A DNA stretch of 54,973 bases, from assembly GCA_010093815.1 (NCBI GenBank), contig ML996580.1; one strand, 5' to 3'. This DNA comes from Pseudovirgaria hyperparasitica. Taxonomy: Eukaryota. Of the stretch, positions 4,301 through 54,973 are shown one piece after another. The notes below the pieces were generated by a model. The model had not been told where the DNA came from and searched no databases. It saw only the letters and a program-made list of their open reading frames with translations. A program made the translations under genes and the position numbers. The stretch's first letter is position 1. Each line of letters begins with the position of its first letter.

Positions 4301-4440
4301 TAGACTAACTAATATACTAGCTATATTCTAAGTACTAATTAATAACGTACTAAGAGAATACCTTAACTACTTTCTAATAGTCTACCTAGATAATATATTA
4401 ATTTACTTAAGAAATCTATTAGAGTATAGAGAATATATAT
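778..4440 (+). mobile_element. Gypsy-type LTR retrotransposon, family A (5' LTR, gag, protease, partial RT), RIPed and 3'-truncated
   Basis: De-RIP readings: gag zinc knuckle GKCLYCKEKGHYARECP (~2231-2281), protease ALIDSGAQSNFIS (~3301), RT [31 protein letters not shown] (~4050-4140) and VYLDDILIY (~4380). Ends at the (TAA)n tail of a LINE. Confidence 0.9.
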
Positions 4441-11798: not shown

Positions 11799-12025
11799 GG
11801 GAGGGGATAATATTAAGGGTAGACTCTAGGTATACTTAACGCTAGTATACTACGCCCGCGCTACTACTCTCTCCTTACTTAATAAAGCTAAGTAAACTTC
11901 TTTTTAATAGTATACTCCGTTCTATATCTTAAGAAAGCTAAGTAGACTCTAGCTTCCTCTCTTATTAAACTTACTATATTCTATAAATACTCTTATATCT
12001 ATGTATACGTCGTATTCCCGTAATA
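11799..12025 (+). repeat. Polypurine tract + 3' LTR of family C
   Basis: GGGAGGGGATAA immediately before an LTR (11811-12025) that matches the 5' LTR at 48215-48431. Confidence 0.85.
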
Positions 12026-12453
12026 GATAGTAGTAGTAGTAGTAGCCTTAGCTACCTTCTTCTCTTAATTATAGCGCTTCTTTATACTACTATAATAAGT
12101 AGACTTTTTAGCTAGTATAGCCGGGGTAGAGATAATCTCTTTAGAGTAAGTCTTATAAGAGAAGGAGATAGACTTAGAAATAGAACTAGTATTAGATATC
12201 TATATATATATATTAGCTAGAGATCTAAGAATAGAATACTCGTTTAGTCTTAAGAGTAAATAAGAAAGCTAAATTAATAACTATAATAATATAAATAGAT
12301 TTTATAGAACTAGCTCTAATAAGAATAGACTACTCTAGACCTAAACGGGCCTAAACTAAAGAAGATAGTATATAAATTAATAACTTATCTTAAGAGTAAG
12401 ATAGATATACTAAAGAAGAAAATTTAGAATAAGAGAACTAAATATAAGCTTAG

Positions 12454-13054
12454 TATAAGGAGGCGGGCTCTACGCACTAACCAACTATACCAAAAGGACC
12501 GAATCTTAAAGCTACTACTTTAAGGGTAGAGTATACTACTTATATACGACTACTATATACATATATAATTAACTAGTAGGCCACGTGCTCCTTATGTGCC
12601 TAACATTATCTCCCTTCTTAAAGGCGCGTGTCCTTACGCGTTATGGGCATGCTACCTTACGAAAGATAAACTAAACTAGCCGTAACGGGCCTAGTATAAA
12701 CGATATGTATATATAACTAATACTCGTAATGCCGCCTCTAGTACTAGATATGCTAACTTACCGTAGTAACGTTACTACTATGTTATCCGTTACGTGCATA
12801 AAGTATACGTAACATGGCAAGCTAAACGAAATCGTGTGAAATTTAATAACGGTTAACTAGACCGAGAGTTAAACCCGTGACCCCGTAGTAGCTTTAAGAT
12901 TATATAAGGAGGCGGGCTCCACGTACTAACTAACTATACTAAAAGGACCGAATCTTAAAGCTACTACTTTAAGGGTGGAGTATACTACTTATATACGACT
13001 ACTACACACATGTATAATTAACTAGCAGGCCACGTGCTCCTTACGTGCCTGACA
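12454..13054 (-). mobile_element. Complete TRIM-like non-autonomous LTR element, family B (601 bp)
   Basis: Two 152-bp direct repeats (12454-12605, 12903-13054), 297-bp non-coding interior, PPT AAGAAGGGAGATAA on the minus strand before the 3' LTR, 5-bp TSD CTTAG (12449-12453 / 13055-13059). Confidence 0.92.
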
Positions 13055-13631: not shown

Positions 13632-16600
13632 GTTAAGTACTTTAGAGTAAAATATAAAAAGAAGAAGAATATTATTAGGACTAATACTAGAATAGACTTA
13701 ACTAGACTACTATAGTCTAGTATAGTCTCGTAATAGATAGATCTAGATTAAGTTAGCTAGATTAAGTAAGGGTACTATATAAGTAGACTATATATACTTA
13801 ATTCCTACTCTTTAGAAATTAACCTTATTATAAGAGTAGACTACCCTTTTAAATATATTTCTAAACCCTTCTATAACCTATTAGTCTACTCTTCTACGTC
13901 TATAATTCTTATATAAGTTTAGTATATATAAATATTAAAGTAGCTATAATAATTTAATCTATATAGATTAGATATTACTATACTATATCTATAAATAGTA
14001 TACTATATTAAGTAGTACTTACTAGACTTAAGTTCTTTATATATAGTAGTATTAAAGATATAGAAAGTCTAAGATATCTTATAGTATCTAGACGAATACT
14101 ATTTACTTATATACTACTATTAAATAGTACTATACTTATTATTTACTTAGGGCTAACTTCTATAGAATAATATAGGTATTTAGCTACTAGTCTTATAATC
14201 CCCTTCTTAAGCTAATTAATATCTTACTATATAATAGCTAACCTAGTAATATAAAGAGGCGTTAATATATTAAGTTTATTTATCTTAGAAGCTATAGTAT
14301 AGTTATTTTATTCTTTCTTTTTAGCCCTCTCTTCTTATATCTTATAGATCTCTCTAGCTATAAAGTTAGAGATACCTTTCTTAAATACTATATAATATAA
14401 GTTACTATTAAGGCTTAGTAGTTTACTAATAGTAATATTTATAGTTATTCTAAGAATATATACTAGCTATACTTTACTAGCTTCTATATCTAGTTATTAC
14501 CTCTTATATAGATAGTTATTAAGCTTAACTTCTTAAACACGTAACTTTTAACTAGAGTTTAGGTTGTCTTCTTTATCTATCTTATCTCTAAGTATTATTA
14601 GCTTCTATCTAGATATCTCTTAATTACTATTCTTTTTACTATCTTTTTATTCTTTAATAACTCTTATATATTATTCTTTATATATCCCTTAGAGGTAAGC
14701 TATTTTTCTCTTCTTAGTATAATTAGATATATTCTTTATAATCTCTTATTCTAAGATTATAAGTACTATAGATTCTATAGAGGCTATCTCTTTATAAATA
14801 TATCTATTACTAGCTATATTAAAGTACTTATAGAACTCTATATATCTATTCTTCTTACCCCTAGATAGTATAATTTCTTCTTCTAAGTTACTATCTACTA
14901 AAGCCTTATAGTAGCTTATTACCGTTTTAGTACTAATACTATATACTAGTATTCTCTATAAAGTATTAATATTTACTATGGATATAGAGACCTTTACTCT
15001 CTCTCTATACTAATCTAAGCTATTCTAAACTATTACTATATAGTTTCGAATTACTTATAGAGTAGTCTAAGAGCTAGCTAAAGAAGATAGTAGTAGAATT
15101 TCCTTACTATTTATTCTAAAGTGTTCTTTAAATACTTATACTCTTTTAATATTTAGTAGTCTATTCTTAATATATTCTATTATTTCTAGATATCTATATA
15201 TTAGGTAATCCTCTCTATATGTAATATAAATAATTAGTCTCTAGAGTCTATTCTAAATTATAGTAGAGTTCTAGATACTTAGAGTAGAGATATACTCTCT
15301 CTTCTAGATATAGTTTTATAGATAAACTTAAGCTAATTCTATAGATATAATGTTAGGCACGTATAATAAACCTTCTCTAATAAGGATGCGGCTTATCCCT
15401 AAAGTAGTCCGTTCTATAGAGTATCCTAGCTTTCCTAAAGATAAAGGTACTTAGAAGGCTTAGAGGAGTATAAGTAGGTTTATAGTAAGTATTAATAGGG
15501 TATAAATAGTAACTAGCTAGTAGGCGAGTAAAGTAGTAATTATATCGGTATAAGTTTAAATTAATTACTATAGAACTATCTCTAGAGATTAGGTCTAAAG
15601 GGTCTATATAGTTCTACTAAGATCCTCTAATTAGAATGCTTATTCTAAGCGTTTAGTACGTTACTTAGAATACTAATATTCTATTTCTAATTACCTAGTA
15701 GACTACTTAGAATATCTATTCTAAGTATCTATAATTAGCTCTCCCTATAGGTATCTATCTTAGCCTTAGATTACTATCTAAGGCTACCTATCGTATTATA
15801 GGTACCTCTTCTACGTGCTATACTATTTCTTACGTTACTCGTACTAGAGTCTACGTATCCCCCTATGGCTCTAGCTAGTAATTTATTATAGTACGTAAGG
15901 AGTACGTGGCCTACTAGTTAATTCTACACGTATATAGTAGTTGTATATAAGTAGTATACTCCACCCTTAAAGTAGTAGCTTTAAGATTCGGTCCTTTTAG
16001 TATAGTTAGTTAGTACGTAGAGCCCGCCTTCTTATATATAACTTATACTTAAAGGTATACTAAAAGGTTAAGTCTTTATATCTATTAGTTAATAATAGCC
16101 GAAAGTAATTCTAGTTTATACTTTCTAAGAGATAGAAATATAGAATTAGAAGTAAAGTAAGACTTTATCTTAATTAATATAAGGTCTAGTTTACTAAATC
16201 TCTCTACTATCTTATTAAACTTATCTAATTCTAGTATAATATAAGTCTTAACTATAGAGTAGTTATTAAACTTATTATTCTACCGTTCTCTATATAATTA
16301 TTCTTCTAAGTTAGTCTTCTTTCCTTCTATCTTTAACTTTTAGTATATAGCTATAGCTAGTTCTTATATAGCTAAGTACTTATTAATCTAAGCTAGTTTC
16401 TTAATTACCCTAGCTTTTTATAATATAAAACTATAAATAATTATCTAGTTATAGCTATATATATCTATTATAAGCTAATATTTCTCTATATTTTATACTT
16501 TAAGACTATTAGATAGGCCTTTAAGAAAGAGTTCTATTTATAAATATAGACTTAGGCTTCCTTTAGTAGTAAGTTTCTCTATAATAATATAATACTATAA

Positions 16601-17716: not shown

Positions 17717-18209
17717 TATAACTACTTATTAGTTCTCTTATATAATAGAACGGGTCTATATAATACTTATAATTAATTCTTTAATAACTATATCTATTAA
17801 TTAATACCTACGGAAGTCTATAAACGTAAAGAAAAGCTAGAAATAGTTAAGTATTAGTAATAGAGAGTACCCTTCTTCTCTAAATAAGTAGAGAAATACC
17901 TTTCTTAAGTATATAAATATACTATATAATTAAGCTAGAGATATATACTTATAGAGCTATAGATGCGGCCTTCTATAATATATAATAGTTATATATAAGT
18001 AGTATACTCTACCCTTAAAGTAGTAGCTTTAAGATTTAGTCCTTTTAGTATAGTTATTTAGTACATAGAGTCCGTTTTCTAATACTAATCTTTTTCTATA
18101 TATACTCTTTAATTACTACTAAAGGGGCTTAGTAGTAATTTATTCTATAATAGAATATACTCTATTATTCTATCTAGCTATACTATTATTTATTTACTCT
18201 ATTCTTATA
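17717..18209 (+). repeat. Stack of LTR pieces: family E (17717-17980), 3' part of family B (17981-18084), 3' part of family D (18085-18209)
   Basis: Sequence matches to 13372-13631, 54735-54840 and ~40890-41009 respectively. Confidence 0.8.
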
Positions 18210-18678
18210 GTAATAGCTTTAAGATCTATATCTCTTTATATAGTAGTTAGTATATAGAATTATAATTCTTATAATAGTTTACTACTATATATTAGTTAAG
18301 TATAATAGATACTTTTATATAAGAGTTATAAAGTAGTCTATAATCTAGATTAAGTATATAATAGATAACTATATATCTATAGAAAGAGATTAAGATATAG
18401 TAATACTATAGAATATATATTATAGTACTAGATAATTAAAGAGAAAGAGTACTATAAGAAAGTAGATTTTACATTATATAATATATAATAGTAGACTATA
18501 TTATATTAGTTCTATAATTTACTATACTATATATTATTATATTCTAATATCTTACTATTACTATTCAAATACTATGTGTTCTTAGTTATCTAAGTAGAAA
18601 AAACTTCTTTATGAAATTTCTTACTATCTCTATTTACTTCTTGATATTTATCTTATAGCTTCTATTATCTACTACTTT

Positions 18679-20643: not shown

Positions 20644-21770
20644 ATCTATTAAAAACTTTTCTAGTATAACTCTTCGTAAGTAAATCTACTATATAGTATC
20701 TCTAGATAGTCTCTAATTATCTACTAAACTATATTCTAATTAAATAACTTTAACTACTTCTATAGCTAGCTACTAGTAACTAACTTTTACTTATAAATAT
20801 AGAGATAGACTCTTCTTATCTATATCTTTATAAACTTTAACTTTGGAAAAAAATTAAATATTATTAAGAATATCTTTATTAAGATTCTTATTATATAAGA
20901 TAGTCTAAGATAATATTATATATATATCTAGTCTATTACTTATTAACTATTATCTATAATCTAGCTCTTTTAATACTTCTATTATATCTTATTCTTTTCT
21001 AGAGCTCTCTTTACTTATAAATTTAGATATATATATAAGAATATTTAAAAGTAGATATAATAGATACTAGTAATAGATATTAAGATATATTATAATTTCT
21101 TAGTATATAGAGAGTATTTAGAGTTCTTTATTATATAGAATAAAATAATTATATATTAACTCTATCTATCTATAACTTTATCTAATAATACTAGTATTAA
21201 TACTCTATAAGATATTAGAAAATATTATATACTTTTATCTATATCTTAAGAATATTTATTAAGTATAAGATAGTAGACTCTATATACTAAATATCTATAC
21301 TAAAAGAACTAAATCTTAAATCTACTACTTTAAGAGTAGAGTATACTAATTATAATAGACTAGATACTATATATAAAGATTATTTATAAATTATATATCT
21401 AATATTAAGTTCTTTTAAAGACTAAAGAGTCTTAAAGAGATAGATAGAGAAAATCTCTAATTTCTTACTATTTTTACTATCTACTTTAGTACTTTAGAAG
21501 TTACTTCTTCTATATCTTAGAGTTATAATTATAGAGCTTTTCTTAAAATAACTAATTAAATATATTCTTTTTCTCTTAATTTTTCTTATATAGAAAGTAA
21601 GATACTCTATAGAACTTAAAGTATACTTAGATATAATTAAAAAACTTCTTAGAGACTTAACTCTAGATTTATTAGAGGATATAAAAAGTTTTCAGAATAA
21701 TAGAATATATGTGTATATGTTATACACGTAACACGCGCCAAGAGTTACGCTGAAAAAGTTATGGACGGAT
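20644..21770. mobile_element. RIPed DNA-transposon-like element with ~31-bp imperfect terminal inverted repeats
   Basis: Left ATCTATTAAAAACTTTTCTAGTATAACTCTT (20644-20674) vs right AAGAGTTACGCTGAAAAAGTTATGGACGGAT (21740-21770); AT-rich interior bounded by these ends; no TSD recognised. Confidence 0.6.
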
Positions 21771-35320: not shown

Positions 35321-38300
35321 GACTAAAAAAAACTTCTTATACCCTAATAGACTAAACTAGTTAATTTAGGGTAAAATAGCGATTTACATATATTAAACGA
35401 TAGAGTATACCGAGTATAATAATCTCCGATATACATGTATATATATAGTATATAATACGCGACGATACTAACGTATAGAGATACTATATATATACGCTTA
35501 AAGACTCTTCGATAATACGAGTATAGACTATATCTAATAAACGCCGACACGCCGACCCCCTTTTATTAGTTAAGGGCTACCCTTAACTAATAACCATAGC
35601 GGCCTTAGGTATTATAATACCCCGGTATACGCCGGATATACCCCTACTAGTACGGTAGAAACGGCTATATAGCGATATTAATATAGATAGCTAGATACCT
35701 ATCTAAAATATAGGAACTAACTAAGGGTATAAAGTACTATAGATAACCTAGACTAAGGGGACCCTAAGAGGGGAGACCCTCCTAGATAAAATTAAATACT
35801 AGGTAATATATATAGAGAGGGACGCTAAGGAGGGAAAGAAGACCCTCCTTTATATATTCTAGGACCTTATCTAGAACCTAAGAGGAATCATAGAGAAAGA
35901 AAGGAAGTCGCCACGAGAGAAACCTAGTAGTAGGCTCGACTAAATAGAAGCTAGCCTATAGAGAATCTAGGAAGAGCTATTCTAAGGTAAGCGCCCTAAT
36001 ATATAGGCTTAGATTATAGTAATACCCGGAGCTACCGTACTAAGGACTACTAGGACTATAGATAGAGTATATAGTATATATATCGTAATCTAGGATAAGA
36101 ACACGCTAGCGTAGGTCTAATAGGCATCCCTAAAGGAAATTATAAATAAGATTAATAAATAGAAAGGAATGTAGTCGAGTGTTGTGGCTACTAAAGTTAC
36201 GCTAGATAGAGTAGTACTTACTACTATAACGAATACTACGTAGTAAAATATCTTACGAGATCCGAACGTAATAGATAGTATCTTCCCCGGCGCGTCTATT
36301 AGGGTAGCTATATACCCGATTATAGTACACGTAGTACCTATACGGGGATAGGCTATTAGAGCGGAGGATATTACGCGTATAGAATAATCTAACGCGCGAA
36401 AATACCCAGGGATTAAGATCGTAAAAGCGTGGTAGAAGAATCTATAGGCGATTAAGACGACGGCGAAAAAATACTCTACTATAATTATAGAGCTCCGAGA
36501 CCCCACCCTTATATAATATATTATATAGAAGGGATTCCTAATAGAAGGAGAGCTCCTTATAGCCGAGCCATAGAATAGAGTATAGGTAATAATATAGTAC
36601 TTTAACTATTAAGGGTATAGATATACTATATAAAGGTACTTATAGAAGACTAAGTGCGGATAGTACTATAGGGACCACGCTATCTAGGAGTGCCCTTATA
36701 AACCGCGAGGAGACGGACTAAGAAATAGGAATATAGTATAGTATTTAAACTACGATGGGAAACACCTATTATAGTTATTAACGTATATAAAATGTAAATA
36801 GATTATAGAATATATTCGTACGATAAAAGCGAGAGGCGCGAGATAGTTATAGAATATAATACCTACCACGAGCCCTTCCTTTATAACACCCCTAACTTTC
36901 CCTCTAGAAGGTAGTTAGGCGGGATAGTAGACTATCCCGAAGACGATAGGACGACTAAAAGGCATAGTTAAAGCCGCTACCGCGCGAGGATAGTCGCGCC
37001 TCCGAGGAATAAGTATATAGATATATATACTCTCTAGTACCTAATAAGGGACTAGAATATACTCTAAATTATATAGGTAAACGTATAATATAAAAGAGAG
37101 AACTAGGAGACGCTCCTTAAAGAGACCGGGGCTATAATACTCGCCATCTAGAAACCCTATAAACACTACTAGACGAGTAAACCAACCATATACCCCGGAT
37201 ACTATACTATATACCCTCTAGGACTAGAAAGATAAGTCCTCTTCTATATTCATAGATTAATACTACTCTTATTATGGTCGTATACTAAGCGTAATAACCT
37301 TAGAATAACACTACACCTATAAATAGATATAGGCCCCCTATATATATATAATATATATAACTAATAACGTATACTTATACTAGACGAGATGCTTAAGGGT
37401 ACTACGGAACCAGGGTAATATATCCTCCTAGGAGACTTTAACCTCTACTACTAATAGTAGGGAGGCCTAGCCGTAGTTAGAGAAGAACTTAGAGTAAGGG
37501 AACTACGTACCCGCTACCACGACTTTCTATACCTACTTATATCTATAGAATAAGTTATATAGAAAAAATATAAATAGAACGAAGACGGGTCTATGCTTAA
37601 CCTTACCTTCGCCACGGAGTATATTAGTTACCAGATCTAATACTACCGCCTAGGCTAGGTATAGACGGATTCCGACTATAAATATATAGAAACCGTAATA
37701 AACGTATATACCCCGAATAAATAATAGGGATAATAGATATAGAAGGACACTAACTAGGAAAAGTACCTAAAGGACCTAGAATCGGCGATTCTAGATCCCT
37801 CTATAGTCGATATATCTAACGACCTAGCCATAGACTAGGCCATATAGACACTCCTATAAATATACTAGAATACGAGAAATAAACACGTACTATACTAAAT
37901 ATACCGGCCCCTAGAAGTAAAGGGGATTCCTTAAGTATGGGAAAGTAGATAAGACGCCTAAAGGCTATATAGACGCGTACACCGTATAAGAATACCCGAG
38001 TTATAGAAAGAATAGAAGGAAGTAATATAATAACGCGATAAAGTCCTCTATAACGAAAGGCGTAAATAGTAGCGTATAATTACTAGTTAATAGACACGAT
38101 ACGTAATAGGGCTATAGTATATAGTAAAATAGGCCAAGGGCGTAGATACTCCGATACCCCTACTACTTATACCTCCCCTAATATATTAGGGGAGAATATA
38201 CTCCACGGGCCTTAAGAAAACTAAGGCTCTATAGAAGGCTATATTCCCTCTCCCGGAACTAGTAGACCTATTAGACGTTCACGGCGCTAAATATCTATAC

Positions 38301-40590
38301 GCGGTAGATATCCCCGAAGAAGTTACGGAGGAGGATATACTTAATATTATTAAGATACTTCTAAATAATAAAGTACCTAGACTAGATAGAATTCTAAATT
38401 AATATCTAAAAAGCACTATAAAAGCGACCCTACCGCTTATTACTCGTATATTCTAAGCATACGTCACGTAGGGGTACCACCCCTAGAGCTTCCGAGTCGT
38501 CTATACTATTATACTTCCGAAACTAGGAAAGAGCCCTAACTCTCTAAAGGGATAGAGACTAATCGCCCTTCTCTTCTATCTAGGTAAGATACTAGAGGCT
38601 ATAATAGTAAAGAAGATAAGTACCGCGGTATAGGAATATAATCTCCTCCCTCTAAACCAGAAGGTAAAGATAGATAGCTCCCTAATAATAGCTATCTAAT
38701 ATATTATTAAAGTCGTCTAGGCCGTATAGAAATAGGGACGGGTAGTATCGCTTCTTTCCCTTAATATAGCCGGAGCGTTTAATAAGGTAAACTATATAAG
38801 ACTTATTTATAACCTCCGGATGAGACGAATACTAGAATAGATTATACGCTTTATATAGTTATTCCTTATAGGAAGAATAACTTAGATATATATTTCTAGG
38901 TACTAGAGCGAATATAAAGAGACGGTATACGGCATTCTATAAGGGAGTACTATCTCTCTAATTCTATTTCTCTTCTTTACGGTAGACCTTCTTTAAGAAA
39001 TAAAGTATATAGAGATAGTTAGATACGCCGATAATATATACCTTCTAGCTATTAATAATAATACTAACCGAACGTATAGATAACTAGAATAGAACTATAA
39101 GAGGTATCTCTAGTAGGTAAAACGCTACGGAGTAAAGTTCGCCCCGGAGAAATACTAGCTTATATACTTTATTAATCGTTAAGGGAAATAGGTAACTAGG
39201 GAAGGCGAATAACGCCCCCGAATTAACGTATTTAACGAACTACTAGTATAAAGTATACACGTGCTCGGAGTTATACTAGATAGTAAGCTTAAATAGGGAC
39301 CATAAGTAGTATACGCTGTCTCTAGGGCCCTCTAGATAGAAGCCGCTATATAATAGATTATAGTCTCCACGTAGAGAACCGCCTAGGATAAGGCACGCTA
39401 GCTATATATATCTATAGCACGACCCGCCTTTATATATAGACACGAGTGCTAGTATACGGCCCTTATATAGACTAGGCGAATAAAGCTTAAATCTATATAG
39501 AATAGTATACTCCGTCTTATATTAGGCGTATATAAAGCTACTAACACGGTACTACTATAACGCGAGATAGACGTTATAAGTATATATAACTTCTACTAGA
39601 TATAGAGGGTGGTATACTTTACTAAATAATAAGTATAGGAACGTATAGGAAACGTAGAATATACTTTCGCTACGCTACGCGTATAAATTAGTATATATTA
39701 CCGTGTACTTCTATATATAGGCCGGAATCGAATACGGTATAGATGCTTAATAGAAGCTAACTCTAGCTAAGTAGTATAAGAAGTCCGAGATAACCTAGAC
39801 GCTCTTCTAGACTAGTAGAGCCTTTAAGAACTCGTGAAAAATATACGGTCGTAGACTTAAGATAAGTAGAAAGAGGCACTCCGTACCTACTAGACCTTCT
39901 AGTAGAATAGGTACCTAGAGTAGATTTAAGGGCTATAGAAGGAACTAAGTAAATAGATATATAAAGGGCTAACGAAAGTCTAAGTATCTATACTTATCTA
40001 AGCCCGAACGGGCGCTATAGAACTCCTATACTACATCTATAAGAGAGGCGTTCCCGATACCTCTCTATAGTATAAGGCGTGCGGCCGGAGAGGTATAATA
40101 CGCTACTATCTAGCTATATACCCTAACCTCTATATATAATGGTAATAGCTTATCTACGTTATAAAGACTTTAGATATCGTATAATAGCTTAATAAGTACC
40201 CTAAGGACGTCTCCCGATAGATACTTATATATCTACTACTCCTCTAGTACTAGTAGACCCGGAAATATATGCCGGAAGAGACCCGGTATACGCCGGTAGT
40301 AACCCGATATATACCGGAAGAACCCTAGGAGAACCCTAATTATTAGTCGAGGGCAGCCCTTAACTAATAACCTCCGTACCTATATATACTACCTAAGGGT
40401 AAAATAATAGTAATATAGGCTATAGGCTAATAGGCGTACTCTATAGCTATATACTTAAGACGAAATAGAGGTTTAACGAGATGTAGTTATAGATATAAGG
40501 AAGTTTTTCTCTATAGGGTTTCTTCTTATATAGTGGCTTAGACTAGAGGAGGCATAGGCCTATAGAGTACTACTCTACCTAGTTATATAA

Positions 40591-43700: not shown

Positions 43701-46700
43701 GATTATATTTCTATACTATGATACTTATCTTCTTTACTATTATAGCCTCTAGTATCTTATCTAGGTAGAAGAGAAGGGCGATTAGTCTCTATCCCTTTAG
43801 GGAGTTAGAGCTCTTTCCTAGTTTCGGGAGTATAATAGTATAGGCGACTCGGAAGCTCTAGGGGTGGTATCCCTACGTGACGTATACTTAGAATATATGA
43901 GTAATAAGTGGTAGGGTCGCTTTTATAGTACTTTTTAGGCATTAATTTAGAATTCTATCTAGTCCGGGTGCTTTATTATTTAGGAGTATCTTAATAATAT
44001 TAAGTATATCCTCCTCTATAACTTCTTCGGGGATATCTACCGCGTGTAGATATTCGGCGCCGTGAATATCTAATAGGTCTACTAGTTCCGGGAGAGGGAA
44101 TATGGCCTCCCGTAGGGCCTTAGTTTTCTTAAGGCCCGTGGAGTATGTTCTCCCCTAATGTATTAGGGGAGGCATGAGTGGCGGGGGTGTCGGAGTATCT
44201 ACGCCCTTGGCCCATTTCGCTATGCGCCATAGCCCTGTTACGTGTCGTGTCTGTTACCTCTAGTTCGAAGTCGGATGACTCCTATAGGTTCGACGTGCCC
44301 TATACCATTAGACCCTACTCCTGTTTTCGCCTTATCTTATCCCCTTTAGACTTATATCTCCGGCTCTACTAGAAGAGGGGCACGACGCCTTATCTAGCTA
44401 GGAAACTACGAGGTTTACTTCTTAAACTCATGTTACTAGCGTACGTGCCTAGCGACACGTTCTATCTCTTTATAAATTAATACGCGCATCCGTTCTCTCG
44501 GGCTATATAGTAGTCTCCCCGGCTAGGACGTGATCCCGTCTACTTCTAGATATACTAAAGGTTAGAGCCTATTAAAGGGGTAAGGTTCTTAGAGCTAGTA
44601 GTTACTACTATATACTACGCCCCGCCTTTAAGTATAGCTACTATCTAGTTTCGCGTTACCTATAAGGATCTCTCTATAATAGGCCGACCGTGTCTTATAG
44701 GCGAGTATCCTTTAAATTCTATACGTGTATACTTACGTGACGCGCCTAGGCGACTTAAGTATCCTCTATCTACTAACCCGACTTGTTTCTACTACTTTTT
44801 AATAGGTCTCTATAGCCGCCTCTTACCTATGTCCGTGTACTATTATCTATATATACTAGCGCCCTACCTCCTACGGTAGACTATAATATCTCTCGTACAC
44901 GGGAGCCGCTCTATCTATCCTAGACCTAAGCGGTATCCCGTATCGAGCGAAAGGTCTTAATAGAGTCACGCTGCTAGTGGTCGCGCTAGGCGTCTTAATA
45001 AACGTAGTTTAATACTATAGGAGAGTTAGCCTTAATAAGTTCATCCGTAGTAGTTTATAGTTACCCTTAATATAATTTCTCGCTAATCCTTACGTACCTA
45101 GAGCCATTTAAGCCTCGAGGTATCCTATCGCGCTACTAGGACTTCCGCTTTCTCTACCCATATGGTAAGGTAAATTTAGGCCTGCTTTCGACATAGTAGT
45201 AGCGCGTTAGATGGTTTTCTTATCCCGGTATCCTCGTGGACTCCTCTTAACGCGTTAATTAAGAATAGGATAGGAGTATATACTATCCTAGCTGGTTTAT
45301 TATGGTGTGGTCTCTATAGAGTAACGCGTCGCGAAAACTCTATAACTACCTACCTAGCGATGATAAGGTCGCCATTAACGCCGCTCCGAACCTCTTACTA
45401 CCTCCGAAGAGGCATTGCCTAGCTACGATAACGTGGACGCGGTTCGTGAGACTTCGTAGCCATAGAAGGAAGTATAGCTACTATCTATAATAACCTAGAA
45501 ATATTTAGCTATATTTATACTAAATACCCTTAGAACGGATAGAGAATATAAAAGAAAGATACTATCTAAGTTAAGAAGCGTAGTATAATAACTAAACTAG
45601 ACATCTACTTAACTACTATAATACCTCTAAAATCTATAGAATAATATCCCTATACTATAGAAAAATATTTATATATTCTAGTTTCGCGAAGTACTACTCC
45701 TATTAATCTATAAAAGACTAGGAATAGTATTATTAAGTTTTAACTATCTATATAAATTAGAGAAGAAAGCTAATAAATACTACTATATCCTTAAGAAATA
45801 TAGCTCTTTAGATAAAACTAATAAACCCTATATAGATTAGAAATAAGGTTAATTAAATACATTCGATTAAGAGTAACCTTACTATAATTAGTACTAGAAG
45901 AGTATAAATTAGAGTAGAAACGTATTAAGAGGATACTAAAATAATTAAGGTAGTACTTCTTAATATAGAAAAGAATAAGATATAGGCTTAAATATAATAT
46001 CTATTATAAAATAGTAGAATTATAGTATACTTCGTTACTATAAGTATAGAGAAATAGAATATATTATATCTAACTATAAGAATCTAAAAAAAGAATAGAC
46101 TAGTACGTAAGATCTAACTATATTCTTAGCTAAATTATATATACTTAGAAGAAGCTATAGTATCTTCTAGTAAGTAAAGATCTAATATTACTAAAAGTAT
46201 CGTTATCTATAGTAAATAGTAATAAAACTATATAGACCCTTATAGATACTAGTATAGAGAATAACTATATTTTATTAATTCTTATAAAGGAGTATAGATT
46301 ATTATATAATCTTAGTAAAGTTAGCTAAACTATTATAGTTAATAGATATAAAGTTAGAACTTTAGATAAAGCTATAATAAATTATAAAGTTTATAACTTA
46401 AAGATAATAAAATAGTAGATATCTAATAAATTTATTATAGCTAATATTAGCTAATAGAATATAATTCTAGAGATACCTTAGCTTAAATATCTAAATCTAA
46501 TTCTTAATTTTTAGAAGAAGATATTAACGTTCCGATAATACTATAGTAAATTATACTAGTAAGTTATAACTATTAGTAAGGAGGTATAGAACCTTACTAT
46601 ACGGACCTAATTATTACTAATCTATCTTATATTCTTATTAATTATTAATAAAGATAAGGATAATAGTAATAATTAGGGCGAAGATATACTATCTAATATA

Positions 46701-48214
46701 TATTTATAGTATACGGATATATTTTTAGTAGAAGATATATTATTTCTCTCTAATTATAGACTGTATAAGCTAAAGATTAAGCTTAAAGAGGGAGTAGATA
46801 TCCCTTATAGTCTACTTTATCTACTTTTAAGACTAGAACTTAAAGTTCTTTATAAATATATTAAAGAATACCTTAGAAGAGGCTAGATATATTATAGTAT
46901 ATTATTAGCTAGTATATCTATTCTCTTTATAAAGAAGAAAGATAGAAGTTTATATCTATATATTAACTATTAGATACTAAATATAGTAACTAAGAAGAAT
47001 TATTATCTATTACTACTAGTTAGTAAATCTTTAGACTAATTAATAAAGGTAAAGTACTTTATAAAGCTAGATTTATAAGATATATATTACTAGCTTTAAA
47101 TTCATCACAGAGATAAGTAGAAAACCACATTTCAGACTAGATATAGTTATTTTAAGTATACTATTATACCGTTCGGGCTAATAAATATACTAGGAGCGTT
47201 TTAAGAATATATTAATACTATACTTATAGAATTACTTAATATGATTTATATAGTTTATCTTAATAATATACTAATTTACTCTAATAGTATATAGAATTAT
47301 AAAGAATATATAAAATTAGTACTAAATTATCTAAGGTACTATAAACTCTATATAGAATTATCTAAATATAAGTTTTACTAATAAGAAGTTAGGTTTCTTA
47401 GCTTTATTATAATATATAGCGGTCTAAAAATAGAGCTAGAGCGTATAAAGACTATTATAGAATAGCTAGAACCTACTACTATATATTAAATTAGAATATT
47501 TATAGATTTTATAAACTATTATTATAAATTTATTATAGGCTTCTTATAAATTATAGTACCGCTTAATAAACTTATAGAGAATAGTAGTAAAATCTCTATA
47601 GATAGGTAAGTATAGTATAAAGCTAAGTTAGTTAAGATATAGTTAATACTAGAAGCGTAAGATACGTTCCGATTATTAAAGAATTACTTTATAACTATAC
47701 TAATTCTTAGGTATTTTAATTCTAAGAAGTATATTTAGGTTAAAACTAATATATTAGGATTTATAATTACTAGAATTATTAGTTAACTATATAAAGATAT
47801 AAAAGATAAGGTATAATAGTATCTAGTCGTCTTCTTTTTCTATAAAATAGTAGATATAGAGACGTATTATAATACGTATAACTGGAAACTACTTATAATT
47901 ATTAAGAGTTTTAAGTAATAGTGATATTATTTAGAAGGCTCTATATATTAGATTAAATTATTATTAGATTATATAAATCTATATTACTTTATATTAACTA
48001 AGGTTCTTAATTACTAATAAGTATATTAGGCTAAGTAGATATTAATATTTAACTTTAAAATCTTATATAAAGCTAGAAGAGAGAATAAAGCTAATCCTCT
48101 ATCGCGGTATAAAGATTATAAGAAATCGTTATAGAATAACATAGATAGTTAGTATAATTTAGACTATACTATACTTTAGATATTATAAGACTAGTTATCT
48201 AATAGAATACTAGA
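40782..48214 (+). mobile_element. Gypsy-type LTR retrotransposon, family D (5' LTR 40782-41009, gag, RT, RNase H), interrupted twice
   Basis: De-RIP RT LFVKKKDGSLRLCIDY (~46923), VYLDDILIYS (~47253), RNase H VETDASG (~47738); split by insertion 41736-45461 and cut by the family C LTR at 48215. Confidence 0.85.
41736..45461 (-). mobile_element. Chimeric retro-insertion: 5'-truncated Tad LINE (41736-44256) fused to a 1.2-kb non-LINE 5' segment (44257-45461)
   Basis: LINE part is the reverse complement of ~38085-40617; the whole unit is flanked by the 15-bp TSD ATAGAAGGAAGTATA (41721-41735 / 45462-45476). Confidence 0.88.
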
Positions 48215-51200
48215 TGTTAAGGGTAGACCATAGATATACTTAACGCTAGTATACTACGCCTACGCTACTACTCTCTCCTCGCTTAATAAAGCTAAGTAAG
48301 CCCCTTTTTAATAGTATACTCCGTCCCTTATCTTAAGGAAGCTAAGTAGACTTCGGCTTCCTCCCTTATTAAACTTACTATATTCTATAAATACTCTTAC
48401 GTCTATATATATATATTATATTTCTATAATATTAAGTTTAATTCTATTTTACTCTCTAAGTACTTTACTATAGACTTCGGAGATAATACGTAGGGTAACG
48501 CTAGGGGCGAGCTAGGCTAAGACCTAGATCTAAATATAGGGTTATAAAGCGCCGAAGAGATAATCTTTAATCTACTATAATACTAGTAAGCCCTTAAACG
48601 AGAGATTCTTACTATAAGAAACTAAGCCTCCTAGAATTAATTAAGCCCTACTATAAATAAACTACTAAAGTCTCTACTTAAAAAGATAACCTTAACCCTA
48701 TAAACTAACTAGGAACTATTAGAACCTAGAGACTAGAAACCGCCCTCCTAGAACGGTAAAGTAGCTACCTTCTAAGACTATCTATTACGGTTATATAGCT
48801 TCTATAAGATATAATCCGCGCTTAAGCTAAAGCTATCTCTAGATTACTACTAGGACGCTATCTATAATACTCTACTAGCGCGTAAGAGAAACTAAATATA
48901 ATACTTCTAGAAAAGGGGAGACTCTATAAAAGGTAAGGACCCCGAAGCCTTCTTTATATAACTTAAGTATATATTTATAGATAGTAATAAGAAGGCTAAG
49001 GCCTTAGAAAAGCTTTTATTACTTAAATATATAAATAGCTAACCTTAGTATAAATACTAACTCGAATTTAACGGGCTTCTACTAAGCGCTAGTAGAGATA
49101 ACTAGAAAGATAGTATAAAAATTAGCTATCTCTAAAATACCTTCTTAAACCCCACTTATATATATATAGTCTCTATACTAAGGATTATAGACTACTATAG
49201 CTTCGTAGAAGAGATTAAGAGAATTATAATAAACTTAGAAGATACTAAGTAGTTTAAGGTAGCTAATAAGAAGTAGAAAAAGGATATAATTACTATAATA
49301 AAAAGTATAGTAGCCGTAAGGTTATATAAGTATTATACTATAGCTAAAAAGAGTAAGAATAGGGATACTATTATAGACCCTATATATATAAGTAGAGACT
49401 AGAAGAAAGAATCTAGATTCTACTATAAGACGGAGGAGATACCGAAGGTAAAGTAGATTAACTAAGTAGAAAGAGATAGATACTAGAAAGAAGGGCTCTA
49501 CTTCCGTTATAGAGTATCGGGATACTAGATTAAAGGCTATCTATATACTAACCTCTCCTTAACCTCTAAAAGGATTATAAAGATTAATTAAGTTAAAATT
49601 ATACCTCTATTAGAGATTAAAGATAATCTTATAGATTCTAGTAATAAGTACTTAGAAAACGCATAACTCCTTCTTAAAGTTAAGAGTAGAGAGTAGAGGA
49701 CGCACTAGTAGATAGATAGGCCGAGTTCTAAAGTATAATAGATAGAAACCTTATATATATAGACGTAGTTCTCTAAAAAGCTATTAGGACTTTTATACTT
49801 ATTAATAAAGGCTACTAGTACTATACTATAATTTAAGAAGACCTAATAGAAGGTCTAGAACTTCTCTATATAAATTATATAAAGTATATAATTAAGGGAG
49901 TAATGGACGCTATAAATGACTCTAAAATTTAGAGAGTTATTATATTTTATATAGAGATAGATAATTACGGATAAGATATCTACGCTTATATAGTATCTAA
50001 CTTAGCCTTCCCGCTTATTCTTAGAAACCCTTAGAAAGCGTATAATAAGGTACGGACCGTGTTTAATAAGTAATAGTACTACTACGGCCGAGTAAAGTAA
50101 TAGATAGATGAAGGTCTTAACTACTATAAGCTAGAGACCGCCGAAGAGTAGGTAGACTCTATAAAAGAATATAAGAACTCTAAAGGGGCCCTTATAGTAA
50201 ACGCGGTATCTATAGAGAATATCTATAAGACGCTAGAGAAGAAGAAAGAGCTATTACTAGAATAGATATAGAAGATACTACCCCCGTAACTCTAGAATAT
50301 AGCTCTACTATTTTCTAAAAGGGAAGCGGATAAACTCACGCCGTACTAACTAGATATTAATTATAAAATTAAGATACGCGAGAAAGCGGACGGGATACTA
50401 ATAGACTTACCGTAGGGGCGGCTATTTAGTATAGTAAAGGACGAGCTTCTTGTACTAGTAAAACTTCTAAGAGACCTTCTAGTAAAAGGGCTAATTCGGT
50501 ATACCGTATTAGAAGCTACGGCCCCTATATTATTTATAAGAAAGTCTAGCGGAGAACTCCGGTTCTATTACAACTACCATACCTTAAATACTATTACTAA
50601 GCCCGACTAATACCCCTTACTACTAATACTAGAGACCCTCTAAAATCTAATAGATGCTAAATAGTTAACTAAGATAGATATTATTACCGCCTTCTACTAG
50701 ATCCGTATAGCCCCTAGCCATAAATATAAGACGGCGTTTAGAACTTGGCTAGGGTCGTTCGAATAGATGGTATACCTATTTAGATTATTAGGGGCTCTAG
50801 TAACCTTCTAATAGTATATTAACTCCTTACTATAAGAATAGCTAAACGACTTCGCTTTAGTCTATATAGATAATATAATTATCTACTTAAATAGATCGAA
50901 GGAAGACCACTTTAGTAAAGTATATATCGTCCTTTAGAAGCTCTAGAACGGAGACCTCTATCTAGACCCTAGGAAAAGTAAGTTCGCTTATAAAAAGATT
51001 AAGTATCTTAGATTTATTATATATACTAATAGAAAAGGTATAGGCCCTAACCTAGAGAAGCTAAAAGTAGTAAAGAACTAGTAGAAGCTAAATACCTAGA
51101 AGAAAGTATAACGGTTCCTTAGATTCTATAACTACTACCGGATATTTATTATAAACTATTCTAAGCTAGCCGGGCCTCTTATAGCGCTTACTAGTAAGAA

Positions 51201-54200
51201 TACTCTATTCTTCTAGAGAAAGAATAAGGAAGAGTTATTCTAGACCCTAAAGAAGAAGTTCTTAGAGGCCCTAGTTATAGTATACTAGGACCCTCGTTAG
51301 AAGATATTCCTTAAGATAGACTATAGTAGGTTCGCGCTTAGAGAAGTACTACTTTAGAAAAATAAAGGAACTCTTAGATCTATTAGATTTTTTTTATAGA
51401 AGCTAAATAAAGTAGAGATTAACTATAATATCTATAATAAGGAGATACTCGCCGTAATCTCCTACTTAAAGTTCTAGAACCCTAAGTTAAAAGTATATAG
51501 TCCCTTTACTATATAGACGGACTATAAGAACCTTAAATATTTTATAATAAAGTATTATCTATTAGAACGCTAAATATAGTAGTACGAAACCTTATCTAAG
51601 TACTAGTTCTCTCTAGTTTACTAACCGGGATCTAAAGCGGTCGTCTCTAATACTCTATTAAGATAGAAATAAGATACGCTTAGAGTAGATAATAAAGAGT
51701 CTAGGTTCTATAGATTTCTAGACTCTAAGGACGTAAAAGATTAGCCGGTCTCTAAGGTAAGACTATTAGCGGCCTATACTATTAACTTACTATTTAAGGA
51801 TATATCGCTAGGGACTAAGTCTATCTATAAAGAGCCGGCTTCCCTAGAATCTTTCTAGAACTACTCTCTAAATAATCTATAGACTATAATAGTAGAAAAG
51901 AACTTAATATACTAAACTATACTCTATATAGTAACGGAAGGAGTATAGTTATTTCTAAGTAAGGTAAAGCTAAAAGTCTAAGTAGTAGATTATAGTATTA
52001 GCTTAGAGGGCTACCTTAACTACCGCGAGAAATTATAGATACTAGATATAAAGGTAACTACGGAAGCCAAGTATAAAGTACTAGGGCCTAGCGAGTTAGA
52101 AGGGGACGTCCTTTAGACTAAGCTTATCTAGTCTATATATAACTCGCTACTCTATAGCTATCTAGGCCGAGATTCTACCGCTTCTATACTAGTATAAAGC
52201 TTCTACTAGCCGCTATAGATAAGATATATAAGGTAGTTTCTACAAAATTATAACTACTATAGATAGAATAAGGTATAGTAGGAATAAAAATATAGACTTC
52301 TAAAGCCTCTTCTAGTCTCTAATTATTTCTTCTAGGAGATCTTAATAGACTTTATTACTAATCTACCCGGCTTAGAAGAGAACCGCTACTTATAGATTAT
52401 TAAAGACTACCTAAGTAAGACTATAGTATTATAAGCGATATCTACTATAAAGGTAGAGGAATACGCTAAGGCGTTTATAGATTACTAGGTAAGGTACTAT
52501 AGTATACCCTTAGCGATAATAAGCGATTAAGAAATAAACTAGACTAGCTATTTCTAGAAGACCTTTTATAGCCTTACTAGAGTAATCTAAAGACTAAGCT
52601 CCGCGTACTATTCTTAAACGGATAGAGACCTAGAGAGAATAAACTAGGAGGTATAGAGCTACTTACGAAACTTTATTAATTAGAAATAGTCTAATTAGAA
52701 AACCTAGCTTCTAACTACGTAACTAGTACTAAACGCGCGCTACTAAGTAGAGCTAGAAATAAGCCTATTCTTTACCACCTATAGATATAACCTACTATCC
52801 CCCATGCCTCTATAGATAGAAGCTAACTCTAGTTTCTTACTCCCCGCTAAATAAAGAGTAGAAACCTTTATAAAAAAGATAAAGAATATTACTAAGCTAT
52901 ATTAAGTAAATATAGTAGAGGCCGTCTAAAAGTAAGAGAAGTCTATAAATAGAAAGTAAACTCTAGTACTAGTATACCGTATAGAAGATAAAGTATAGCT
53001 TAATTTAAGAAACTATATAATAAGTTAACTAAAGAAGAACCTAGACTTAAAGCATGCGAAATATACTATAGATAAAGTTCTATTACTAGTATCCGTTAGA
53101 CTAAGGGGGCTCCCTAGTAATATCTACCCGGTATTCTATATAGATCTACTTAGACTAGCTAGTAAAGACCCTCTACCTAGATAGAAGACTAATAATAAAT
53201 AACCGGACTCTATACTTATTAAGATATATAAAGAGTAGTAAGTTAAAGAGATACTATATACTAGGAATAAAGGGCGAGGATAGAGAAGAGAAGTCCTAGT
53301 AAAATAGACTAGATACTATAACCTAATATAGAAACCCTTAGTAAACCTAATAGATACTACTATATTAGATAAGTTCGAATAGAAGTTCGGACCTACTAAG
53401 ATAAATAATAGCCTACTAGAGTAGTAGACTATAAAGAAAAAGAAGGTATCCGCCTAGTAATCTATAGAATATATAGATAAAGAAGAGAAAGACTATACGG
53501 CCTTAAGAGAGAATAGAAAAGAAATTTATTCTATAGAAAGAAAAGAATAAAAAAAAGAGAGAGAGAACTAAATACTAAAGGAAAAGATCTAGAGGCTAGT
53601 ATATTCTAATAGATCTACGGGTTAGTCTAATAGGGCCCTAATACTAACGCTAGAGGAATACTACCTATACTATAATAGAAGGTTAGTAAGAGAATTCGAC
53701 TAGAGTCTAGAATTAAACTTACGTTTAACTCTACTAGACTACTATCTTAGTTACCTAGGTAGTTACCTAGAAGGCGATAGTACTAAAAGCGTAGTTAGTA
53801 ATTATTCGTCTAGAGAGTCTAAATAGTCTTATATAGAAATTAGACTAGCTACTTATAAAGGCTATAAAGCCTTTATAGCTTTTAGAATCTAGGCGAGATT
53901 CTTATAGATATCTAGTCTAAACTAACTATTAGCCGGGTGTTAAAATATAAAACTAGAAGGGAAAAGAACTTACGCTCCGGTATTAGCCGACTAAGTCTAT
54001 ACTATATAAGTAATATAAGTAATCTCTAGCCTAAAATACTCGGTTAGCGGTTATTATAATAAGGGTTTCTAAGTTAGCTTATAGATTCTAATAATTTACC
54101 CTTCTTAGGGTATAACGAGTATAGAAGTGACTTTAGTTTAACTAAGTAAATTAGCGGAGCCCGACGTAAATAATATAGAGTCTAATACTTACTACTTAGT

Positions 54201-54688
54201 TAGTATAGTCTTTACTAGCTAGGGCGTAGCTCTAGTAGTAGATAATATTATTTATCTATAGAACCCGAGTATTAGTAACTAGACTCTAACTAGATAAGAA
54301 GGGAGAATCTAATCTTATAACGGAGAAGAACGAGGTTATTAAGGTCTAGAAAAATAGAAGGGAAACCGTACCTTTATACTTAGGACCCTTAAAATTATAA
54401 ATAGACCTTCGTAAATAAGATATCATAAATAGAACGCCTATAATACGCGAATATCTATTTATATATAACTCTAAAAATATATAAATAACCCTTATTTACG
54501 TACTCTTAATGGATGAGTTAATAGTCCCGGCGCACGTAATAATAGGCACCCTATTAACCGAGAAGCACCTAGTAAGGGATAGGTTAATATAAAAATAGTC
54601 CTTAATTAAAGAACTAACCCTTTCTCCTATATACTTAATAATAGGTCTAAGGCCTAAGGAGGTATAGGGCTAAGGTCTAAGAAGATAT
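48215..54688 (+). mobile_element. Chromovirus (Gypsy) family C: 5' LTR 48215-48431, gag, pol with chromodomain, long 3' region, 3' LTR absent
   Basis: De-RIP gag LCFRCGASGHWIKGC (~49496), RT FVRKSGGELRFC (~50533), YIDD (~50863), RNase H TDCSGFALG (~51316), integrase EISMDFITDLP (~52336), chromodomain EWQVEEIL...VLVKWTGY...WEP (~53230-53340); pol ends ~53460. Confidence 0.9.
53575..54371 (-). pseudogene. RIPed, intron-containing antisense gene of unknown function downstream of chromovirus pol
   Basis: Three minus-strand intron-like units (54256-54371, 54142-54192, ~53917-53973) with GT donor, CTAAT branch and TAG acceptor; spliced frame broken only by TAA/TAG, compatible with RIPed CAA/CAG/TGG. 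Confidence 0.55.
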
Positions 54689-54899
54689 TGTTAGGCACGT
54701 GAGGAGCACGTGGCCTACCAGTTAATTATATATGTGTGTAGTAGTCGTATATAAGTAGTGTGCTCTACCCTTAAAGCAGTAGCTTCAAGATTCGGTCCTT
54801 TTAGTATAGTTAGTTAGTGCGTGGAGCCCGCCTCCTTATATAATCTTAAAGCTACTACGGGGTCACGGGTTTAACTCTCGGTCTAGTTAATCGTTATTA
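54689..54899 (+). mobile_element. Family B element truncated by the telomere (5' LTR 54689-54840 plus ~59 bp of interior)
   Basis: Reverse complement of 12844-13054. Confidence 0.9.
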
Positions 54900-54973
54900 G
54901 GGTTAGGGTTAGGGTTAGGGTTAGGGTTAGGGTTAGGGTTAGGGTTAGGGTTAGGGTTAGGGTTAGGGTTAGG
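54897..54973 (+). repeat. Telomeric repeat (TTAGGG)12 + TTAGG
   Basis: Perfect tandem TTAGGG to the end of the window, G-rich strand running toward the end. Confidence 0.98.

Follow-up and report, generated by a model that had tools for sequence, protein, structure and literature searches.

The subject of this analysis is a 54,973-nt stretch of the genome of Pseudovirgaria hyperparasitica (contig ML996580.1, assembly GCA_010093815.1; hereafter ‘the window’), towards the end of which lies a Ty3/Gypsy chromovirus altered by repeat-induced point mutation (RIP). Beyond the pol gene of this element, and on the opposite strand, we find at positions 53615-54371 what is very probably a copy, killed by RIP, of an accessory gene belonging to a lineage of fungal Ty3/Gypsy chromoviruses. 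An initial annotation, made from the letters of the window, had proposed that the chromovirus carries an extra, intron-containing gene in antisense; this is borne out by the collinearity of the window with related elements, by the place of the gene within their paired long terminal repeats (LTRs), by its orientation in 12 of 12 matched loci and by splicing in one relative. The kind of feature had been recognised correctly; the gene model drawn for it (frame, length and number of introns) was wrong.

Relatives were collected with the stop-masked pol sequence, a search that returned 51 proteins, among them eight intact ones (P0001-P0008) of 1167-1264 residues that share 44-46% identity with the damaged query; P0001-P0007 carry PF00078, PF17917/PF17919, PF00665, PF17921 and PF00385. 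Alignment of P0001-P0008 then led to 65 loci in public metagenome contigs (L001-L065). For part of the BLAST searches, sequences were converted to a purine/pyrimidine (R/Y) code, which RIP is unable to alter. Read against these relatives, the gene in the window resolves into the following parts, given in the direction of its transcription:

54372-54555, minus strand: first-exon and promoter remnant (tentative), with a CTATTA..CTATTAAC motif at about 54515-54555
54256-54371, minus strand: intron 1, in the 5' untranslated region (UTR), acceptor backed by homology
54193-54255, minus strand: exon A, 63 nt, first CxxCx6C half, start codon ATA, Cys codons TAC/TAC/TAT
54142-54192, minus strand: intron 2, 51 nt, GTAAGT..GCTAAT..CTTAG, L001 homologue removed in RNA
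54083-54141, minus strand: exon B, 59 nt, second CxxCx6C half, three Cys codons now TAT
54031-54082, minus strand: intron 3, 52 nt, donor ATAAGC, branch GCTAAC and acceptor TTTTAG retained, L001 homologue removed in RNA
53974-54030, minus strand: exon C, 57 nt, remnant of LPxIAHIAYAVWTRS, Trp codon now TAG
53917-53973, minus strand: intron 4, 57 nt, GTAAGT..GGCTAAT..TTTAG
53833-53916, minus strand: exon D, 84 nt (equal in nine relatives), with the remnant of a conserved hairpin at 53862-53886
53783-53832, minus strand: intron 5, 50 nt, donor ATAAGA, branch TACTAAC and acceptor TTTTAG retained, position homologous to a GTAAGT intron of relatives
53723-53782, minus strand: exon E, 60 nt, length equal in all relatives modelled
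53670-53722, minus strand: intron 6, 53 nt, GTAAGT..TACTAAC..TATAG, a strict pattern, place and length (53 nt) equal to L001
53615-53669, minus strand: exon F, stop codon TAG at 53617-53615, aligning with ..GGVPPALVLGxRRxN(P)stop
53520-53575, minus strand: T-rich tract, reading A-rich along the pol strand, within the 3' UTR of the gene

The exons of 63, 59, 57, 84 and 60 nt have the exact lengths of those in L001 and L017, and exon A, equal in length in L001, L003, L005, L006, L017 and L020, starts directly after the acceptor, as theirs do. In R/Y code, L001 5615-6287 matches 53619-54298 at 352 bits and L017 5365-5967 matches 53620-54246 at 277 bits, with all other matches of that search at or below about 80 bits. 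Over 375 ungapped exon nucleotides, comparison with L001 or L017 yields 180 identities, 104-108 differences of the RIP type (C in the relative to T in the window, or G to A), 13 reverse transitions and 74-78 transversions; the resulting RIP-tolerant identity is 0.76-0.77, as against 0.447 ± 0.028 and a maximum of 0.54 in 2000 random placements on RIP-mutated DNA. Among the codons, 88 of 124 are identical to, or derivable by RIP from, those of one of five relatives, where permuting the codon order (1000 times) gives 24.1 ± 4.0 compatible codons and at most 39.

The region between 53460 and 54688 has a GC content of 0.318, a TpA/ApT ratio of 1.89 and a (CpA+TpG)/(ApC+GpT) ratio of 0.07, values that are the mark of RIP. 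The window copy is unable to make the protein: its ATG has become ATA, and the frame is interrupted by 15 internal stops, of which 10 could have arisen from a Gln, Trp or Arg codon present in the relatives. Each of the six invariant Cys codons has turned into TAC or TAT, and introns 3 and 5 have lost their donors, which now read AT. No BLAST homology was found beyond 54298; the CTATTA..CTATTAAC motif in the first-exon and promoter remnant was judged by eye against GTGCTATTG..CCTATTGTCA, which stands upstream of the TATA box in L001-L006.

The element to which we assign this gene comprises two further features in the window:

48215-48431, plus strand: 5' LTR, aligned with the LTR ends of L001, L002 and L020
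48711-53457, plus strand: RIP-mutated gag-pol with a terminal chromodomain, pol stop at 53455-53457

The 5' LTR starts with TGTTAAGGG and ends with ..CTATAATA, followed by a TTAAGTTTAAT leader; in R/Y code L001 105-283 matches the window at 48307-48491. The stop-masked pol frame is recognised by the Pfam profiles RVT_1 (1.1e-9) and RT_RNaseH (1.1e-13), and its chromodomain-like end aligns with the consensus of the intact relatives, such that the window element, taken with its closest relatives, shows the reverse transcriptase (RT), RNase H, integrase and C-terminal chromodomain that define a Ty3/Gypsy chromovirus pol. The gag-pol of the window is collinear with L001 543-5341, and the R/Y collinearity with this locus as a whole covers 48307-53446 and resumes at 53619-54298, reaching from the 5' LTR across gag-pol as far as intron 1 of the antisense gene. 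It is because of this collinearity with the relatives that we count the gene as a member of the element, no matching 3' LTR being present in the window.

Both LTRs, each of 172-192 bp, are present in three of the related loci, at the following places:

L001: LTRs at 50-221 and 6748-6919
L002: LTRs at 707-878 and 7410-7581
L020: LTRs at 862-1053 and 6743-6934

In these three, about 1.3-1.4 kb separates the pol stop from the 3' LTR and the antisense gene sits inside the LTR pair. A tblastn search with five spliced proteins matched 12 of the 65 loci, in every case on the strand opposite to pol. Among close loci (pol proteins 63-92% identical in the best segment) that extend at least 600 nt past the pol match, the gene is in place in 10 of 12; the pol match of the two without it, L011 and L012, ends at residue 1106 of 1261. 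Two further matches, in L013 and L025, are located upstream of the pol match, and none of the 40 distant chromovirus loci L026-L065 gave a tblastn match to the antisense gene.

On the minus strand of the L001 spacer a TATA box is followed by a first exon and by an intron of the 5' UTR whose AG directly precedes the ATG. The coding exons measure 63, 59, 57, 84, 60 and about 93 nt, and the GT..AG introns between them 58, 48, 51, 49 and 53 nt. The same plan recurs in L002, L003, L005, L006, L017 and L020, and more loosely in L009: one 5' UTR intron and five introns in the coding region, each of 45-58 nt, with every intron of L001, L006 and L017 bounded by GT..AG. A poly-T run occupies the place of the T-rich tract of the window (for example L001 5460-5485, minus strand). 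In L004 intron 2 is precisely absent with the frame kept (L004 6241-6362, minus strand), which looks like a loss by way of spliced antisense cDNA in an element that keeps its other introns.

As a side observation, the introns of L001, L003, L004, L006 and L017 share an internal core, YTCCG..GAAAAGCGTCGCTAACCG, noted also at the introns 54192-54142 and 54082-54031 of the window; in L006 an identical 28-mer occurs in both of the final two introns, and self-BLAST of L003, L005 and L006 shows repeats about 111 nt apart. The introns of the antisense gene may be paralogous to one another (introner-like), or may be carriers of a common binding motif.

Within the spliced frame, the ratio of nonsynonymous to synonymous substitution (dN/dS, Nei-Gojobori) is 0.20-0.43 in all ten pairs formed by L001, L003, L004, L006 and L017. 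Exon D of L001/L002, L003, L004, L005/L006 and the partly mutated L020 holds an in-frame TAG (L001 5869-5871, minus strand). At this position L017 has TGG, the database proteins P0058, P0060, P0061 and P0064 have Trp, P0056 has Cys, P0057 and L009 have His, and the window codon (53874-53876) reads ATA. Beyond the TAG, copies that bear it have a synonymous share of 0.43-0.55 among their differences vs an expected 0.28-0.29 (p 0.002-0.04 per pair, the pairs being non-independent), and the other two frames of this tested, downstream part have pN/pS values (the corresponding ratio of proportions) of about 1-1.7 with one exception at 0.46.

Antisense spliced RNA, which the initial annotation had suggested looking for, is found in a leaf-litter metatranscriptome (run X15), where contigs pass from L001 6126 straight to 6185 (58 nt omitted) and from 6019 to 6068 (48 nt omitted). 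The omitted segments read CT..AC on the plus strand and are introns 2 and 3 exactly as modelled; a DNA run (X1) spans the same region without either join. Transcription and splicing from the antisense strand are thus seen in the one relative L001. Removal of introns 1, 4, 5 and 6 was not seen in the RNA contigs, some of these parts being covered by unspliced contigs only.

With the gene model in hand, the details first proposed can be placed. Three intron-like stretches had been reported on the minus strand and all three are there, reading GTACGG 54371..ACTAAT..TAG 54256, GTAAGT 54192..GCTAAT..TAG 54142 and GTAAGT 53973..GCTAAT..TAG 53926/53922/53917; they are our introns 1, 2 and 4. Of the alternative acceptors of the third, the favoured one at 53917 is correct, as it yields an 84-nt exon like that of the relatives, and the reported T-rich tract, the end of pol near 53460 and the 1.2 kb after pol devoid of an LTR are likewise present. 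For the first of the three, the acceptor is upheld by homology, and the GTACGG donor is backed neither by homology nor by an RNA contig with the intron removed. Three introns were overlooked among the six, namely 54082-54031 and 53832-53783, both of which now begin ATAAG, and 53722-53670. The frame read as MSSTTRATPQ from 54246 lies 9 nt away from the start shared with the relatives (54255), and the roughly 190 codons assigned to it shrink to 125. That this frame was ‘interrupted only by TAA/TAG’ carries no weight, all three minus-strand frames being equally filled with stops, and the Gln-rich helical C-terminus arose only because TAA and TAG were taken for Gln in a frame that is not that of the gene.

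The protein of the relatives is about 124-139 residues long and opens with cysteines spaced C-x2-C-x6-C-x10-C-x2-C-x6-C, all six of which are invariant in L001, L003, L004, L006 and L017; there follow LPxIAHIAYAVWTRS, an amphipathic stretch (DAHDDLKKVLKAWKALKPLQ / DAHDDLKKVLKAWKALKPLQASGLLS) and a tail ..AQQGQTAGGVPPALVLGxRR. A six-frame Pfam search of 53401-54900 with stops masked found no match. A full HMMER search returned 11 proteins and no named family, seven of them unnamed open reading frames (ORFs) of related elements (P0056-P0061 and P0064), including P0060, a partly spliced model that joins exons C to F; the long proteins P0054, P0055, P0062 and P0063 were taken as spurious, having matched through a serine-rich intron read-through. 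In the ESM Atlas the Cys6 segment met only unnamed clusters under 0.9 and residues 1-76 of P0060 gave no usable match, and a word-index search with P0052 (exons B-D of L001, two in-frame introns read through) found nothing among proteins of 54-174 residues. A DUF5939 hit at E 0.2 on the Cys6 segment of L004 was disregarded, and an alignment that placed pieces of exon B on the first Cys half was not used, the two halves being alike. On these motifs, the product is probably a zinc-binding Cys6 protein of an unnamed family.

Its closest likeness is to the Zn2Cys6 (Gal4-type) domain, PF00172, in the spacing of the six cysteines followed by a linker and an amphipathic, helix-like stretch; the spacing lies within the range of that domain. 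The protein is unlike PF00172 in giving no profile match and no match in the PDB, and in lacking the basic residues typical of the first half of the motif. By analogy, it perhaps works like a Zn2Cys6 domain.

Several observations weigh against the gene as we have modelled and assigned it, and are best considered together. No 3' LTR brackets the gene in the window, where nothing resembling the 5' LTR follows pol, and neither plain nor R/Y BLAST found a second copy of the gene elsewhere in the window. In the relatives, the donor of the last L003 intron reads ATAAGA, L020 has itself been mutated in part, and on a plain reading of the copies bearing the exon D TAG the product stops at residue 73. 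The splicing evidence from X15 amounts to one contig per junction, at a depth of 2-3, from one run and for two of six introns, and unspliced contigs also cover the L001 region in RNA; the latter are expected, because sense genomic RNA covers the same DNA. The Cys6 segment of L004, which lacks the intron (40 and 61 residues), does not match PF00172 Zn_clus at E up to 10, phmmer against the PDB found no sequence match at E up to 10, and a single-sequence AlphaFold2 model has a mean predicted local distance difference test (pLDDT) score of 59.1, too low for fold comparison.

Three other explanations might be entertained, the simplest being that the intron-like motifs arose by chance in TA-rich, RIP-mutated DNA and that the region is a degraded spacer or LTR. 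GTAAGT, CTAAT and TAG are indeed easily made by C-to-T and G-to-A changes, no minus-strand frame is open, and the six-frame Pfam search was blank. Saying this, the strict pattern GTAAGT..CTRAY..YAG occurs three times in the 1229 nt of the minus strand at 53460-54688 (donors 54192, 53973 and 53722; a relaxed donor adds 54371), where dinucleotide shuffles average 0.18 and none of 500 reaches three; the plus strand has none, and the density in five further stretches of the window is 0-0.59 per kb. Exon lengths identical to those of relatives, R/Y collinearity at 352 bits and 88 of 124 compatible codons vs 24 ± 4 also stand against chance, which we regard as already refuted, its remaining probability being negligible. 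A host gene beside a chance insertion, or a capture private to a few copies, would fit the missing 3' LTR in the window and the 40 of 40 unmatched distant loci; the gene lies within both LTRs in L001, L002 and L020, however, and 10 of 12 close loci agree in where it stands and which way it faces, making an origin of this kind extremely unlikely.

The antisense unit might, finally, yield a spliced RNA that is non-coding and serves, for instance, to regulate the sense transcript, its frame being incidental. Such an RNA would sit well with the in-frame TAG of most relatives, with the failure to match any named protein family, and with the strongly conserved intron core and exon D hairpin. It accounts poorly for dN/dS values well below 1 in ten of ten pairs when the other frames past the TAG are at about 1-1.7, for six cysteines invariant in five relatives, for an intron loss in L004 that keeps the frame, and for Trp at the TAG position in L017 and four database ORFs; we consider it improbable, and retain the reading of the unit as a protein-coding gene of the element.

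The exon D TAG nevertheless calls for comment, as a candidate site of restorative editing or of read-through. It follows a T and lies in the loop of a predicted hairpin of 9-11 bp in L001, L003, L004 and L005 (z-scores -1.4 to -2.8); in the hairpin alignment, pairing holds for 83% of the cells, and two of eight rows carry the one double change, GC to AU. Fungal adenosine-to-inosine (A-to-I) editing of mRNA is described in passages of PMC4817773 and PMC11156358 as preferring U at position -1 and hairpin loops, and correction of premature stops from UAG to UGG during the sexual stage appears in passages of PMC4817773, PMC11156358, PMC10776026 and PMC11087585. In the TAG-bearing relatives we find what a site of this restorative (Tad2-Tad3) type would display, a UAG with U at -1 in a hairpin loop and G in relatives. 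The sole RNA contig that covers the site (record 10, depth 3, from the leaf-litter metatranscriptome) shows no A-to-G change, which, for a sample of this type, is uninformative either way. We would tentatively suggest, whilst holding it to be rather doubtful, that the antisense gene is gated by A-to-I editing in the clade of L001/L002, L003, L004 and L005/L006. If it were, production of the full-length protein would be confined to the sexual phase, the phase in which repeats come under attack by RIP and meiotic silencing, whilst at other times a truncated Cys6-only form would appear; the expression of the transposon might then be tied, through this site, to RNA editing in the sexual stage. This suggestion concerns the family and not the dead window locus, where the codon is ATA.

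Synthesising these findings, we propose a model for how such a gene might persist and act. The gene would carry its own TATA-type promoter, and in the sense genomic RNA its introns, reading CT..AC, would go unspliced and so survive reverse transcription, with splicing confined to the antisense mRNA. The protein might be a small zinc-binding nucleic-acid binder, a regulator encoded by the element itself that acts on the transcription of the element or on the balance of its sense and antisense RNA.

The window element did not come down to us whole; it is truncated between 54298 and 54612, with its polypurine tract (PPT) and 3' LTR lost, as follows from the presence of another repeat at 54612-54896. 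The features at this end of the window, and the copies of that repeat, are:

54612-54896, plus strand: different repeat, in place of PPT and 3' LTR, reaching to the telomere (R/Y matches)
54897-54973, plus strand: TTAGGG telomere repeat, 12.8 copies, at the terminus of the window
12453-12681, 12847-13054, 15890-16038, 17978-18085, 18175-18261 and 21263-21400: further copies of the 54612-54896 repeat

Because of the terminal 12.8 TTAGGG copies, the end of the window is taken to be a chromosome end, and its final 7 kb is AT-rich (GC about 0.31-0.36). Positions 54612-54841 match 12681-12453, and 54689-54896 match 13054-12847 at 100% in R/Y code (zero transversions), the latter copy differing from the telomeric one by transitions only and ending at the same base. 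A core of about 150 nt (54694-54842) occurs six times in the window; it starts with TGTTAGGCACGT after a purine-rich run, and the final base of the repeat abuts the first TTAGGG. We considered 54689-54896, which starts with TGTT after the purine-rich run, as the 3' LTR of the element and rejected it as dissimilar to the 5' LTR (local R/Y score of the 5' LTR against 54640-54900 of 49, shuffles 46.9 ± 5.7). The repeat could represent a subtelomeric unit or else an LTR from a different family.

Elsewhere in the window, a second copy of the 5' LTR lies at 11809-12025, and two more RIP-mutated Gypsy RT fragments, at 46827-47606 and 4004-4424, are about 75% R/Y-alike to the pol studied here, with no detectable copy of the antisense gene beside either. 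An inverted 257-nt pair at 44000-44256 and 38088-38344 is R/Y-identical and has a related stretch at 6709-7197.

The gene in the window is the dead representative of a known and barely studied kind, and its value lies in the family to which it points: a chromovirus lineage that keeps a small, six-intron antisense gene under purifying selection, spliced in nature. The antisense orientation of the gene would account for the persistence of introns in an element copied through RNA, and in the exact intron loss of L004 the reverse process is seen. In annotation, stretches of this kind downstream of pol in RIP-mutated repeats are best taken for dead genes of the element, rather than host genes or junk. 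The gene is likewise a candidate, open to test, for a regulator that a retrotransposon encodes itself. Extra genes of LTR retrotransposons are rare, and a literature search for such genes in fungal LTR retrotransposons turned up a single case, brtn.

Among better-known systems, HBZ of human T-cell leukaemia virus type 1 (HTLV-1) is made from a spliced antisense transcript in the 3' part of a reverse-transcribing element and is a small nuclear regulator; it starts in the 3' LTR and is a basic leucine zipper (bZIP) protein. The promoter of the fungal gene, by contrast, appears to be internal and its protein is Cys-rich, such that the likeness is one of analogy only. Some additional ORFs of plant elements lie in antisense between pol and the 3' LTR. 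Additional ORFs of plant LTR retrotransposons, reviewed in PMC7264820, share with our gene the presence of an extra reading frame beside gag-pol within an LTR retrotransposon; they differ, on a comparison by description, in their plant hosts, whereas the fungal gene is cut by six short introns of fungal type and encodes a Cys6 N-terminus. The nearest counterpart is brtn, whose defining trait, a place within the element, beyond pol and on the opposite strand, is found again here. In PMC8365987 and PMC4227169, which cite Zhao et al. 2011 (Virology 417:248) for it, brtn is described as an additional antisense gene of the Boty-like (BcGypsy1) Ty3/Gypsy elements of Botrytis cinerea; on a comparison by description, it resembles the gene reported here in being an extra antisense gene that belongs to a fungal, chromodomain-bearing Ty3/Gypsy element.

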